DNA of 44,240 bases, taken from the sequence record NC_073318.1; one strand, written 5' to 3'. This document shows positions 12,639 to 15,923 of this stretch, in pieces. Within the stretch, counting starts at the first letter, position 1. Each line of letters opens with the position of its first letter. A model generated the notes under the pieces. That model did no database searches. It saw nothing but the letters and a program-made list of their open reading frames with translations, and was not told the DNA's origin. The translations under genes and the position numbers were made by a program. The DNA comes from Escherichia phage NTEC3.

Positions 12639-13076
12639 TTATCCTAATAGTTGTTTGGTAATAATCTTGCCGCCGGTGTTGGTGTCGAACTTAGATGCAA
12701 CTGCTACGCCACCATGTGCTGAATACCCACACTCCATAGCCGCCAGTGCATATGACGAGCCAGACCCTACGGCGGCAAAGCCGTCTGCAATTGGAATAAC
12801 AGAACTTAGAGTGCAATCCCAAGATTTGTAGAACTCCACCTTATACAACGTTTCAATGTCTTTAACCCATACCAAAGCAGAGAAATCAAAATCATAATGC
12901 TTAGGCACTAAAATACTATCGTCCTTCACTAAAAGGATACCAGCTTCAGCATTACCCGCTACACCGATAACAGCAAACTCGTTCTCATATATCTTGGTAT
13001 CTGTGTTGTAGATGTGGTCCCCGGCTACTCGGGTGTCACAGGCCATTGTCTTTCCGTCAAACGCGATAGTAGTCAT
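12639..13076 (-). CDS. HslV-like proteasome-type Ntn-hydrolase peptidase
   Basis: 145 aa; N-terminus MTTIAFDG...AGDH mirrors HslV Thr1 region; VIGVAGNAEAG and AAVGSGSSYALAA match HslV GFAG and GSG motifs. Confidence 0.6.
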   Translation of the reverse strand: MTTIAFDGKTMACDTRVAGDHIYNTDTKIYENEFAVIGVAGNAEAGILLVKDDSILVPKHYDFDFSALVWVKDIETLYKVEFYKSWDCTLSSVIPIADGFAAVGSGSSYALAAMECGYSAHGGVAVASKFDTNTGGKIITKQLLG

Positions 13077-13390
13077 TTATGTCTCCAGATGTATTGTCGT
13101 CTCTGTGGTTTCGTCGGAATATCATCGTACCCCAGCGATTTCCAGTAATTAAATAGCCGGTTCGCGATAGCTGCGCGTTCCTTTGTTTTAAACTCACCGA
13201 GATTCACGGCCTTTCCGTTCTGGAATCCACAGGCGTGGATAGCTTTACGCCGTTCTTGTATCTCTGGGTACAGCACGTTACGGCGACGCTTGTGTATACG
13301 TGTCTTCGCTCTCGGTGACAGCGGCGCAAGGCCGCTTCGTTTCAGGATGTCAGTTGCAAGGCTCATTGCGATACTTCTCCAGAATCTCAC
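13073..13390 (-). CDS. hypothetical basic protein, translationally coupled to HslV-like gene
   Basis: 105 aa, Arg/Lys-rich; its stop overlaps the HslV-like start (ATGA). Confidence 0.4.
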   Translation of the reverse strand: MRFWRSIAMSLATDILKRSGLAPLSPRAKTRIHKRRRNVLYPEIQERRKAIHACGFQNGKAVNLGEFKTKERAAIANRLFNYWKSLGYDDIPTKPQRRQYIWRHK

Positions 13391-13646
13391 CTACTCTATC
13401 GTATGCATATTCGTCCGGTATTACGCCGTAACCCAGGTCGTTGTCCAGCTTAACTAACATATCGAGTATATCGTTGAGTTCGGCTTCGAGTTTCGCGTAG
13501 TCTTCGTAACTTACATAACGCCCTTCATGAGAGTCCGGAACAGGCGTTATATCTACCACGCCACTCGCGCAGTCTTCTGTTAAATCGTAGCGTATAACCA
13601 TCACTCCACCCCCTCCACATGTGTAACTGACCCGCAGTTCGCGCAC
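13350..13646 (-). CDS. tandem paralog family member C (acidic small protein)
   Basis: Likely true start MVIRYDL (internal); shares MVxRY N-terminus with the two upstream paralogs. Confidence 0.45.
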   Translation of the reverse strand: MRELRVSYTCGGGGVMVIRYDLTEDCASGVVDITPVPDSHEGRYVSYEDYAKLEAELNDILDMLVKLDNDLGYGVIPDEYAYDRVGEILEKYRNEPCN

Positions 13647-13690
13647 TCGACGTAATCAGGGTACTGGTCTTTGTATTTCTGTAGCTCGGC
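13601..13690. repeat. direct repeat copy 1 (about 90 bp) from tandem gene duplication
   Basis: About 90% identical to 13870-13959 (shared CACATGTGTAACTGACC...CAGTTCGCGCACTCGACGTAATC core). Confidence 0.7.
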
Positions 13691-13915
13691 GTTTACTTCT
13701 GCCAGTCTCGACACAAGCCCTTCTATTTCCTTGTCGGCGTCGGCTAGACGTTCCTGGTAATAGTCGTCCAGTTCCTTATAGCTGTCGTACTCTACATAAT
13801 CGCCGTATGCGTACTCAGCCATCTCAGGCTCTGGCAGGCCCCACGCTTTTACCTCATATCTCTGTACCATTACTCCACCCCTCCCACATGTGTAACTGAC
13901 CCACAGTTCGCGCAC
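13601..13915 (-). CDS. tandem paralog family member B (acidic, C-terminal CxxC)
   Basis: Likely start MVQRYEV; C-terminal ELQKYKDQYPDYVECANCGSVTHVEGVE nearly identical to paralog A. Confidence 0.5.
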   Translation of the reverse strand: MRELWVSYTCGRGGVMVQRYEVKAWGLPEPEMAEYAYGDYVEYDSYKELDDYYQERLADADKEIEGLVSRLAEVNAELQKYKDQYPDYVECANCGSVTHVEGVE

Positions 13916-13959
13916 TCGACGTAATCCGGGAACTGGTCCTTGTATTTCTGTAACTCGGC
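13870..13959. repeat. direct repeat copy 2
   Basis: Matches 13601-13690; encodes the conserved C-termini of paralogs A and B. Confidence 0.7.
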
Positions 13960-14145
13960 TTCAACTTCCAACAGCTTTAGGTCAAGATTCTGGTAGTCCT
14001 CAAACTTAACCCACTTCCCGTGGCGGTCAATGAAATGGTTGTCGGACCCATACTTAGAATATCTCTGTACCATGTTATTTCTCCTGTTTTCCAAGTCGCT
14101 TAGGTGAGCAGATAGCGCGTACCTCTGAATCGTTGGGCTTGTCAC
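13870..14145 (-). CDS. tandem paralog family member A (acidic, C-terminal CxxC)
   Basis: Contains MVQRY...ELQKYKDQFPDYVECANCGSVTHVGGVE. Confidence 0.5.
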   Translation of the reverse strand: MTSPTIQRYALSAHLSDLENRRNNMVQRYSKYGSDNHFIDRHGKWVKFEDYQNLDLKLLEVEAELQKYKDQFPDYVECANCGSVTHVGGVE

Positions 14146-14278
14146 CCTGAAACAGAAAGTGCGCGTTCTCGGCGGCGCGTGCCGCTGACTGGCACGCCTC
14201 CATCGAGTAAAACGTTTCTGATGCCGCCAGGTGCATCTGGCCTGCGGACAGTACCCAGATAAATAAGATGCTGGTCAT
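14075..14278 (-). CDS. small secreted protein (signal peptide, two Cys)
   Basis: 67 aa; hydrophobic N-terminus ILFIWVLSAGQMHLAA followed by polar mature part; overlaps both neighbours. Confidence 0.4.
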   Translation of the reverse strand: MTSILFIWVLSAGQMHLAASETFYSMEACQSAARAAENAHFLFQGDKPNDSEVRAICSPKRLGKQEK

Positions 14279-14748
14279 TTGATTTTCCCGTGGTTGTCGT
14301 GAAACCCATATTTGTTCTCAGCGTCGGCCCTCGCTGCTCTTGCGGCAGAAAGGTCGTCGAAATATCCTAAATGTACATTTTTACCGTTAACCTTTATGGT
14401 CCCTTTCCATTTACCCGCACGCTGGAACCAATACACTCCAGTAACACCTGACCGGTTGTTGGCGGCTAATTTTGTGTTTCTATGGTTTTCGGATGCTGTT
14501 ACTTTCCTAAGATTGCACAAACGATTGTCACTACGGTCGTGATTTATGTGGTCTATTTGCTCCCCTGGGTGAAGTAAATCGTCGGGGTTAAACATGTCCC
14601 ATATTATTCGATGTGCGCGGTACTGCCTCTTTTCGACCTTCAACACAACATAGCCATCCCTATTCTTACACGTTACTTTTGCTGAGGTCTTCTTCCATGA
14701 AAGAATGCCGGTAGTATGGTCATAATCGAATAGTGTGTGCCATTTCAT
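14275..14748 (-). CDS. HNH homing endonuclease with AP2-like DNA-binding domain
   Basis: IDHINHDRSDNRLCNLRKVTASENHRN HNH motif; GVTGVYW...GKWKGTIKVNGKNVHLGYFDD AP2-like segment. Confidence 0.75.
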   Translation of the reverse strand: MKWHTLFDYDHTTGILSWKKTSAKVTCKNRDGYVVLKVEKRQYRAHRIIWDMFNPDDLLHPGEQIDHINHDRSDNRLCNLRKVTASENHRNTKLAANNRSGVTGVYWFQRAGKWKGTIKVNGKNVHLGYFDDLSAARAARADAENKYGFHDNHGKIK

Positions 14749-15212
14749 TTGTTGTCAGCGTCCCATTTTCGGCAACCAGATTGCTCCCACCCGTACCTGC
14801 CCTTGCAGATAAGTTTGTACGACTCCACGTCACCTGTGGCCTCAGCCAGCTGTTTTGTCAGGCCCTTAACTTGCCCTGTCAGGTGCGATATGTGCTCAGA
14901 TTTCTTAATGTTGTCTTCCTGTAACTCGGCCACCAGCGACGAAGCATCACGTAACTGGTTTTTAAGTGACTGCACCTCATGCGCCAGGTCTTCGCACTGG
15001 CTGTTATTTACCTGCTGCCGTAAACTGTCTTTCAGCGCTCGTATTTCGTCATCCTTACCGGCGATATGCTGCTGTAGGTTGTGAATTACCTGCTTGACCT
15101 CATCAAGGTCGGATATCCGCACAGACACATTGAAAGATGTGACATCTTTCTTATTTACCTGCTGCCGTAGTTGGTCAATCAGGTACTCGAATACTTCGTT
15201 TTTGTTACTCAT
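14745..15212 (-). CDS. coiled-coil protein, unknown function
   Basis: 155 aa, heptad-rich (LRQQVN repeats), overlaps HNH gene start. Confidence 0.45.
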   Translation of the reverse strand: MSNKNEVFEYLIDQLRQQVNKKDVTSFNVSVRISDLDEVKQVIHNLQQHIAGKDDEIRALKDSLRQQVNNSQCEDLAHEVQSLKNQLRDASSLVAELQEDNIKKSEHISHLTGQVKGLTKQLAEATGDVESYKLICKGRYGWEQSGCRKWDADNK

Positions 15213-15406: not shown

Positions 15407-15546
15407 TCACTCCGTTATAGACGCCGTTGTAATCTCCGTCGCAGATGAACGGGTAGAGCATATCTTCATACTCGTCCTGCAACTCGCCTAAAGTCACTTC
15501 GCTATAATCTTTCATCCTCTGTCTCTCCTCTCGTTTGTGTAAATGA

Positions 15547-15575
15547 ATAGTAGCCTATTCTATATTAGTGTGCAA
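15547..15575 (-). promoter_or_regulatory. class A promoter variant (internal early promoter)
   Basis: Reverse complement TTGCAC-N17-TACTAT, 26/32 match; upstream of a small minus-strand ORF starting near 15522. Confidence 0.4.
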
Positions 15576-15722
15576 GTAAATTTTATTGGTGTTTGTATTG
15601 TTGCGTCTCCTGCAATAGTCGCTTCGATTGTTGCGTTTGGTGAAATAGAACAAAAATGAGAAAAATGATACGCTGCTGTGTAGCAGCGTAAGTCACTCAG
15701 TAAAATCCCAAACTATTGAACA

Positions 15723-15923
15723 TCACACTTCTGGCGGCTCGGGTAACGGCATCCAGTGCGTCACGTACTTATCGTAGTGATTCCAGAAAGGCTTTCTCCC
15801 GTCATCAGGAACGATGTAATAATCGTGTTGAACTGCGTTATTTAACGTTTCATACACCAGGAACTCTTTATCCGTACACCCATTACCCGGCAGCATCTCA
15901 CTACACTTAATCCACTCACCCAT
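15723..15923 (-). CDS. DUF551-like small protein
   Basis: 66 aa; WIKCSEMLP ... THWMPLPEPP pattern recalled from the DUF551 phage family; not verified by search. Confidence 0.45.
   Translation of the reverse strand: MGEWIKCSEMLPGNGCTDKEFLVYETLNNAVQHDYYIVPDDGRKPFWNHYDKYVTHWMPLPEPPEV

Follow-up and report, generated by a model that had tools for sequence, protein, structure and literature searches.

The 44,240-bp stretch of DNA analyzed here (the window; sequence record NC_073318.1) matches, at 100% identity, the complete genome of Escherichia phage vB_EcoS_SCS92 (Guernseyvirinae, Kagunavirus; GenBank accession no. ON548432.1). It carries an array of three adjacent minus-strand genes, A, B, and C, whose consecutive stop and start codons overlap as TAATG and TGATG. 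The encoded proteins are small and appear to be assembled from exchangeable head, stalk, and tail modules, and we relate them tentatively to phage-host conflict. A preliminary description of this DNA had noted three consecutive minus-strand genes starting MV(Q/I)RY, and the starts are indeed MVQRY, MVQRY, and MVIRY, each encoded from an ATG codon with a good Shine-Dalgarno sequence before it. Longer open reading frames (ORFs) initiated at GTG were rejected as real genes, as they run into the gene upstream of the array, which encodes a conserved protein of 67 amino acids. One such over-long ORF had led to the array being extended to position 14145; its true end is 14073. The genes of the array and the repeats within it are as follows.

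Gene A: 13870..14073, minus strand; annotated coding sequence of 67 amino acids with an MVQRY start, followed by the head cassette SKYGSDNHFIDRHG, the core KWVKFEDYQNL, a short helix, and the C1 tail AELQKYKDQFPDYVECANCGSVTHVGGVE.
Gene B: 13601..13870, minus strand; 89 amino acids with an MVQRY start, unannotated in the GenBank record; head EVKAWGLPEPEMAEYAYG, core DYVEYDSYKEL, coiled-coil cassette DDYYQERLADADKEIEGLVSRLAEVN, and C1 tail.
Gene C: 13350..13601, minus strand; annotated, 83 amino acids with an MVIRY start; head DLTEDCASGVVDITPVPDSHEG (type N00), core RYVSYEDYAKL, and C2 tail (a helical hairpin without CxxC).
Direct-repeat copy 1: 13597..13699, minus strand; 103 nucleotides (nt), the reference copy, encoding the C1 tail of B.
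Direct-repeat copy 2: 13866..13968, minus strand; 89% identical to copy 1, encoding the C1 tail of A and also containing the start of gene B with its Shine-Dalgarno sequence.
Exact 15-nt repeat ATATCTCTGTACCAT (ATGGTACAGAGATAT): 14059..14073 and 13856..13870, minus strand; 100% identical, encoding the MVQRY start and forming a conserved 5' module boundary.

The lack of an entry for gene B in ON548432.1 produces a 268-bp "gap" in that annotation; identical or near-identical copies of the gene are annotated in phages 590B and XY2. The near-identical CxxC C terminus attributed to the array was found in A and B, which end in AELQKYKDQ(F/Y)PDYVECANCGSVTHV(G/E)GVE, and not in C, whose C2 tail reads LNDILDMLVKLDNDLGYGVIPDEYAYDRVGEILEKYRN... 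and has no CxxC. The proteins had also been described as acidic. This holds strongly for B and C (isoelectric points [pI] of 4.2 and 4.1, net charges of -14 and -13) and only mildly for A (pI 5.2, net charge -4); the three proteins contain 5 (A), 11 (B), and 8 (C) tyrosines. The last 17 nt of gene C overlap, in another frame, the start of the downstream gene, which encodes a protein of 97 amino acids, and this overlap explains why the C2 and C6 tails recurrently end in ...EPCN or ...EPRN. Direct repeats had been reported at about 90 bp. They are present, with a length of 103 nt, and are accompanied by the additional exact 15-nt repeat. The repeats also carry translation signals: the final five C1 codons, GTG GAG GGG GTG GAG TGA TG, provide the following gene with its Shine-Dalgarno sequence and start, and the last codons of copy 1 (GTGGAGGGGGTGGAGTGATG) serve gene C in this way.

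Pairwise BLAST failed to relate C to either A (E = 0.5) or B (E = 0.02). At the level of families, all three proteins match the profile of PHROG 29624, a group of unknown function: A over its full length (9.2e-23), B over its tail half (3.6e-19), and C over the head core (3.2e-5). A hidden Markov model (HMM) of the N-terminal module, searched against the whole genome, recovered A (8e-15), B (6e-11), C (7e-18), and nothing else; A, B, and C were in its training set, so this result speaks for the specificity of the model and is not independent support. The PHROG 29624 matches, the N-module HMM, and natural chimeras in which one head cassette is joined to either tail together show C to be a paralog of A and B, in agreement with the diverged tandem paralogs proposed earlier. 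Homolog searches yielded 360 clusters for A and 107 for C (clusters at 90% identity). None of these contained a Pfam domain, and nearly all contigs long enough to judge were about 41 to 46 kb, like these phages.

Reading and aligning the sequences revealed a common plan of M-V-Q-R-Y, head cassette, core, optional coiled-coil cassette, and tail. Head cassettes span about 8 to 28 residues and fall into discrete, mutually unalignable types, of which we counted at least 28. The conserved core, G-x-[WY]-V-x-[YF]-E-D-Y-x-x-L, leads into a helix and is found in A, B, and C; the nearly invariant residues are R4, Y5, G19, V22, D26, Y27, and L30. About five types of coiled-coil (stalk) cassette and at least nine types of tail were distinguished, C1 being the commonest tail. 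The same head can occur with many tails. The N00 head of gene C was found combined with C1, C2, C3a, C3b, C4, C5, C6, and C7, and the head of gene B with C1, C2, and C3 tails. Because the homolog samples are biased by the queries, these tables give the combinations that exist and not their frequencies. Natural chimeras at the module joints include P0011 (C1/C3), P0150 (C2/C1), and P0120 and L024 (the mosaic coiled-coil gene upstream of the array fused to C1). PHROG 29624, which has neither a functional nor a structural annotation, does not capture this head/stalk/tail modularity, and the alternative tails fall in PHROGs 22955, 37174, 23083, and 23941. The array keeps its position between the conserved 67- and 97-residue protein genes, with overlapping stop and start codons.

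To follow the array among related phages, we compared 32 loci, consisting of the window and 31 relatives (22 IMG/VR contigs and 9 GenBank phages). By HMM count, 2 loci have no family member, 12 have one, 16 have two, and 2 have three, the last being SCS92 and its near-twin 590B only. The usual locus has a C1-type gene, often with one differently tailed paralog behind it. Wherever there are several copies, the array opens with a C1-type gene and closes with a gene that has another tail, and the heads always differ. The array is thus not invariant among relatives, and the suggestion that it diversifies rapidly is borne out by a copy number of 0 to 3 and by the variety of heads (28 or more cassettes) and tails (9 or more). 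The family is absent from complete E. coli genomes. It is near-core in Kagunavirus and present in most of its genomes: about 100 phage records contain a C1 gene, versus 112, all Kagunavirus, that match a query of the 97-residue protein gene plus the adjacent peptidase gene. One relative (L022) retains the 97-residue protein gene without any family member.

Several relatives allowed recombination breakpoints to be placed. Bas73 is 99% identical to positions 14278 to 13868 and resumes at 13357, lacking B and C. Relative L021 is 99.6% identical to 13870 to 13599 and resumes at 13357; it has no C, and A is missing upstream. In Bas72, 99.2% identity extends from 14280 to 13780, which takes in the head of B, and beyond this point the gene continues into a different tail. 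For Bas73, L021, and XY2, the breakpoints lie at the 3' end of the C1 repeat (13868 and 13599), and junctions in general fall at the C1 repeat end with the MVQRY start, at the head/stalk joint, or at the start of the downstream gene. Because these differences map to repeated module boundaries in 99% identical backgrounds, recombination at the repeats is a credible driver of copy number, which supports the earlier suggestion well, and SCS92 and 590B probably gained their third gene by this route. Gene C encodes an identical protein in 590B and was otherwise found only in L019, at about 86% DNA identity. Taken together, the match of A and the B head to Bas72, of B to L021, and of C to 590B and L019 indicates that the array grew by mosaic accretion of modules from different phages. 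The duplication inferred earlier is better viewed as such accretion than as a simple duplication in place.

The modules show the marks of coding sequence under selection. For the C1 tail, 28 distinct DNA versions gave a ratio of nonsynonymous to synonymous polymorphism (pN/pS) of 0.10, with a pS of 0.20. Variation per codon was mostly synonymous, and both cysteines were invariant while their codons varied between TGC and TGT. Similar values were obtained for the neighboring 97-residue protein gene (pN/pS 0.12, pS 0.30), and within single head types pN/pS was 0.13 to 0.29 in small samples. The low ratios in tails and within head types identify both as protein-coding units under purifying selection. 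The diversity of the family therefore appears to arise by replacement of whole cassettes and not by hypermutation; in diversity-generating systems, point variability is concentrated in one region, whereas the heads seen here are discrete, dissimilar types, each under purifying selection.

These data bear on the idea that the proteins have no function at all, the repeats being DNA or RNA elements (a recombination site, a regulatory RNA, or a homing target) or the ORFs being decaying mosaic debris. In its favor, C1 at its 3' end also provides the ribosome-binding site and start for the following gene, which adds some constraint there, and a homing endonuclease gene lies 200 bp upstream. Against it stand the selection on C1 and its invariant, synonymously varying cysteine codons, as well as ORFs that are intact in nearly all relatives. 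The Rfam and tRNA searches gave no matches, and folding of the repeats was no better than that of shuffled sequence (z scores of +1.4 for copy 1 and +1.2 for the other copy). With no such matches and a repeat RNA less stable than its shuffled counterparts, we rejected the reading of the repeats as RNA or DNA elements. A constraint on C1 at the DNA level was rejected as well, its pS of 0.20 being of the same order as the 0.30 of the neighboring core gene. We consider this explanation extremely improbable.

The array is embedded in a run of minus-strand genes that comprises, in the order of transcription, small hypothetical genes, a mosaic coiled-coil gene, an HNH-AP2 gene, the 67-residue protein gene, A-B-C, the 97-residue protein gene, an HslV-like peptidase gene, and holin and endolysin genes. 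The neighbors that figure in the comparison are as follows.

DUF551 gene: 15723..15923, minus strand; PF04448, 4.6e-12; upstream of the array.
Mosaic coiled-coil gene: 14745..15212, minus strand; encodes MSNKNEVFEYL..., truncated in SCS92 by the HNH gene.
HNH-AP2 homing endonuclease gene: 14275..14748; PF13392, 8.7e-14.
Upstream conserved flank: 14075..14278, minus strand; 67-residue protein with a hydrophobic N terminus (MTSILFIWVLSAGQM...), preceding the array in most loci.
Downstream conserved flank: 13073..13366, minus strand; 97-residue, very basic protein (MSLATDILKRSG...), the right-hand boundary of the array in every relative.
HslV-like peptidase gene: 12639..13076, minus strand; so annotated in relatives, with no Pfam match at E < 0.01.

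A 208-bp intergenic gap at 15516-15722 (minus strand) contains a terminator-like hairpin (15690-15669) with a T-run. Beyond the hairpin, and upstream of the gene at 15515, comes AT-rich DNA with weak hexamers that resemble -35/-10 elements. A transcription unit that covers the array, and apparently the lysis genes as well, probably begins at this gap. Terminator prediction placed none between the array and those genes, and the annotation of phage Shashou places terminators likewise. The "early" expression ascribed to the array is an assumption.

In the relatives (loci L003-L030), the mosaic coiled-coil gene encodes proteins of 88 to 259 amino acids that end in one to three zinc-ribbon modules (EQSGCRKED-x-QEC-x-H-x-W...C-x-x-CG). 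The HNH-AP2 gene occupies the place where relatives carry this zinc-ribbon end, and the SCS92 protein stops just past the conserved EQSGCRK motif. Phage 590B (L002 3546-3923), which is 99.5% identical over the array, has no endonuclease gene, and its deletion joins the N terminus of the mosaic gene to the 67-residue MTSILFIW... protein. When a 1.8-kb query that included the endonuclease gene was searched, coverage in every other phage record was at most two-thirds.

The mosaic gene shares parts with the array family. Its ribbons in relatives have the form EC-x-H-x-W...DYF-x-C-x-x-CG, in which the second knuckle (GDYFICAKCG) is similar to the PDYVECANCG segment of C1. This ribbon module is also fused behind C1 in "C1+ext" variants of 96 to 117 amino acids. 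The two families otherwise differ: the mosaic proteins are longer, have another N terminus, and lack the MVQRY head, whereas C1 lacks the first (C-x-H) knuckle. The C1+ext variants and the P0120 and L024 fusions indicate that the mosaic gene exchanges modules with the MVQRY family. With its single CxxC knuckle, C1 looks in sequence like half a zinc ribbon.

Given this neighborhood, the array proteins might act within the phage as regulators or partners of the adjacent gene products, for example, as an antagonist or chaperone of the 97-residue basic protein, an adaptor for the HslV-like peptidase, or a timer of lysis. The translational coupling of the genes is consistent with this, as are the 17-nt overlap of C with the 97-residue protein gene, the shared orientation with that gene and the peptidase and holin/endolysin genes with no predicted terminator between them, and the near-core status of the family. 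A conserved internal partner would, however, leave at least 28 exchangeable heads and 0 to 3 copies unexplained. Furthermore, Bas70, Bas72, and XY1 keep the family without the peptidase, and L022 keeps the 97-residue protein gene without the family. We regard such internal roles as unlikely, though less so than the other alternatives considered here. The peptidase gene is present in SCS92, 590B, Bas73, Shashou, and UTEC10 and is missing at that position in Bas70, Bas72, and XY1. A Pfam scan of the 97-residue protein (13073-13366) gave no match; an AP2-like NGK-x-V-x-LG-x-F motif can be seen by eye. Its match to the HNH-AP2 protein extends over only 10 residues (E = 0.028), and we do not claim an AP2-like identity on that basis.

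Structure predictions are compatible with the modular plan. The AlphaFold2 (AF2) monomer of A (predicted local distance difference test [pLDDT] score of 64) has a beta-hairpin, a helix at residues 24-47, and a C-terminal hairpin bearing the CxxC; that of C (pLDDT 80) has strands at 5-9 and 16-20 and helices at 32-57 and 63-78. When A, B, C, the neighbors, and 30 relatives were scanned against Pfam, NCBIfam, and PHROG, the family matched only PHROGs of unknown function and sub-threshold zinc-ribbon, Lar, and coiled-coil noise. Sequence-profile searches of the PDB with A1, A2, and P0251 returned nothing significant, and no structural or replication family was matched by the array proteins in profile and fold searches. 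The C1 tail aligns, without significance, to residues 210-285 of Enzyme I (PtsI) of E. coli (E of about 0.1 against the PDB), with AELAKLKD...VEVCANIGTVRDVEGAE of PtsI set against AELQKYKD...VECANCGSVTHVEGVE of the family profile. We treated this resemblance as chance, because the C1 repeat DNA has no similarity in any of 5,426 complete E. coli genomes. Literature on Kagunavirus, CM001, Ea22, and Ea22-like proteins yielded no functional study of the array genes.

The preliminary description favored counter-defense or host takeover, with DNA mimicry among the possibilities, and this reading can be compared with published data. The array proteins could be DNA mimics of the Ocr or ArdA kind, or alleviators of the Lar/Ral kind, that shield incoming phage DNA from restriction-modification (RM) systems. 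With respect to mimicry, B (pI 4.2) and C (4.1) are strongly acidic and A (5.2) only mildly so, and no DNA-mimic fold was matched. The likeness to Lar/Ral restriction alleviation proteins (PF14354) consists of a small phage protein with a CxxC-G knuckle in both cases and a weak, recurrent profile similarity, to which weak matches to the "Lar-like" PHROGs 3592 and 6422 can be added. All of the PF14354 scores lie below the gathering cutoff of 28.6 bits: 13.1 for A, 13.3 for B, and 18.5 bits (E = 0.0024) for the best relative, the extended protein P0073. A Lar-type ribbon has four cysteines in two CxxC knuckles; A and B have one CxxC each, and C has none. No link in sequence, fold, or profile to Ocr, ArdA, or Lar was found.

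Phage Bas70 of the BASEL collection contains an A-type gene, one residue different, and a second paralog. Its reported efficiency of plating is 1.3e-5 and 5e-6 with EcoKI, 1e-3 with EcoCFT_I, 1.5e-5 with EcoRI, 8e-6 with EcoRV, 1.5e-6 with EcoCFT_II, and 5e-5 with EcoPI (BASEL). Bas70 is thus restricted 10^3- to 10^6-fold by all six RM systems. RexAB, PifA, Fun/Z, and Old have no effect on it, and the BASEL authors describe their Kagunavirus isolates as highly RM sensitive. That Bas70 is restricted despite its A-type gene disfavors anti-restriction; the data cover the A-type gene and the second paralog, genes B and C themselves being absent from those phages. Anti-restriction is therefore largely refuted for the six tested systems, and we consider it very unlikely as an explanation of the array. 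Counter-defense against systems other than RM is possible.

Profile searches seeded with proteins that carry the N00 head extended the family beyond Kagunavirus. Relatives of 60 to 260 amino acids were found in Wifcevirus myoviruses, in Pectobacterium, Klebsiella, and Enterobacter phages, and on contigs of 59 to 73 kb. An exhaustive search with a profile of N00 proteins, which spans head, helix, and tails together, gave 667 cluster representatives at E <= 1e-3. Many of them are 120 to 250 amino acids long, with tails like those of proteins labeled Ead/Ea22-like. The RY and G-x-YV-x-YEDYAAL anchors are retained, in many cases around a head cassette other than N00, and past them come an AAENAxLK coiled coil and a ETPATDAFLAEVRAQGVE...AAQLRKG tail; these proteins are assigned to PHROGs 492, 614, and 368, also of unknown function. 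Representatives of 25 of the 28 Kagunavirus head types align to the N termini of long relatives. Three Wifcevirus-like proteins (P0230, P0233, and P0265) contain a second internal unit of cassette plus core (G-S-YVKF-x-DY-x-x-LEAK), so the head module can be tandemly repeated within one protein. A long N00-head relative on a 59-kb contig (P0223; L033 7458-8462) has a DUF551 gene and a PF13935 Ead_Ea22 gene as neighbors. The occurrence of DUF551 near both the array and this relative points to an accessory-gene neighborhood common to several phage groups.

The closest parallel among known proteins is the Ead/Ea22-like group (lambda Ea22; PF13935). Lambda Ea22 is described as having a coiled coil between a short N-terminal domain and a C-terminal domain that varies (PMC10834534). 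Both this group and the array family have three parts (N-domain, coiled coil, and C-domain) and are highly mosaic, and the AF2 models of A and C agree with the Ea22-type architecture. One long relative with a ETPATDAFLAEVRAQGVE-type tail is named Ead/Ea22-like in UniRef, and another relative has a PF13935 gene two genes away. The PF13935 profile itself matched neither A, B, and C nor 20 long relatives. The link to lambda Ea22 is therefore one of architecture and association, not of demonstrated homology. The SCS92 proteins also differ from Ead/Ea22-like proteins in being two to three times smaller, in having other tails, and in coming from a virulent phage. Ea22 has been reported to be pro-lysogenic (PMC7093339); since SCS92 is virulent and its proteins are smaller with other tails, this role cannot apply to them directly.

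A second parallel, the Rad50 zinc hook, is offered as an analogy only. In both, each chain has one CxxC next to a coiled-coil helix, an arrangement that by analogy suggests intermolecular coordination of a metal. There is no sequence or fold relationship to Rad50; the only match, to an NCBIfam model in the coiled-coil region, was at chance level (E = 0.06).

We propose that the array encodes oligomeric head-stalk-tail binding proteins that act in phage-host conflict, and we give this explanation as a whole a probability of roughly 45%. Its evolutionary and structural part, modular shuffling, is very likely correct, while the function in conflict or as an adaptor is a good deal less secure and is put forward tentatively. 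The head would be formed by the MVQRY strand and the G-x-[WY]-V-x-YEDY-x-x-L core, which bracket an exchangeable beta-hairpin cassette. The stalk would be a helix or coiled coil of variable length through which the proteins may oligomerize. The tail would be a conserved C-terminal module, a CxxC knuckle in C1 and a helical hairpin in C2, and in proteins of the C1 type, paired knuckles may share one zinc ion. In this scheme, the conserved tail would contact a partner that is itself conserved, and a strain-variable protein of the host or of a rival phage would be bound, or evaded, by the exchangeable head. The array would then be a small specificity repertoire in phage-host conflict and not an antagonist of RM.

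Two features of the family led us to this model. The proteins have no enzymatic domain and are small, acidic, and built around helices, which fits binding proteins or inhibitors. Further, a constant tail with exchangeable heads, 0 to 3 copies, and heads that always differ within a genome fit a repertoire better than a single housekeeping role. The same data could be explained by immune escape, in which the tail performs a conserved task and the heads are replaced to evade host immune sensors. Phage proteins that trigger defense systems are known to diversify, and a conserved tail under purifying selection with discretely replaced heads would be expected under either explanation. However, two or three different heads per genome would raise, not lower, exposure to sensors, and each head type is conserved (pN/pS 0.13 to 0.29) and found across distant phage groups, which suggests functional units. 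Escape of this kind seems improbable to us.

Several points weigh against the proposed repertoire of binding proteins. The AF2 monomer of A is of low confidence (pLDDT 64), there is only one CxxC per chain, and both the oligomer and the zinc are predicted. Co-orientation with the peptidase and lysis genes is equally compatible with phage-internal regulation. The shuffling of cassettes could in part be neutral mosaicism at a recombination hotspot, and the query bias of the homolog samples applies here as well.

A broader and more speculative possibility, which we think doubtful at present, is that the family and its long relatives with Ead/Ea22-like tails form an unrecognized class of phage "programmable adaptors." The hairpin heads would constitute a pool of specificity cassettes circulating among unrelated virulent and temperate enterobacterial phages. 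They would direct a constant coiled-coil/zinc-knuckle module onto strain-variable host immune or competitor-phage proteins, and the A-B-C array would be a small combinatorial counter-defense repertoire.

Mosaic accessory genes with fast turnover and Ea22-like head/coil/tail proteins are already familiar. What is new is an explicit cassette system, a half-ribbon C1 tail, and the link between a mini-family of virulent phages and a head domain found in hundreds of proteins of other phages. If the genes prove dispensable without a phenotype, the locus is just another mosaic accessory region; as it stands, it offers a well-defined experimental lead, and no new mechanism is demonstrated. Many phage counter-defense and host-takeover functions have come to light in hypervariable clusters of small genes, and this locus is unusually clean, with a near-core family whose module boundaries can be read from natural recombinants. 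Its head domain ties the array to hundreds of unexplained temperate-phage proteins, many of them with Ead/Ea22-like tails. Should the heads determine specificity, the natural head swaps, together with the BASEL Kagunavirus isolates (Bas70-76), would provide a ready experimental system for finding their targets and assigning a first function to the head domain.

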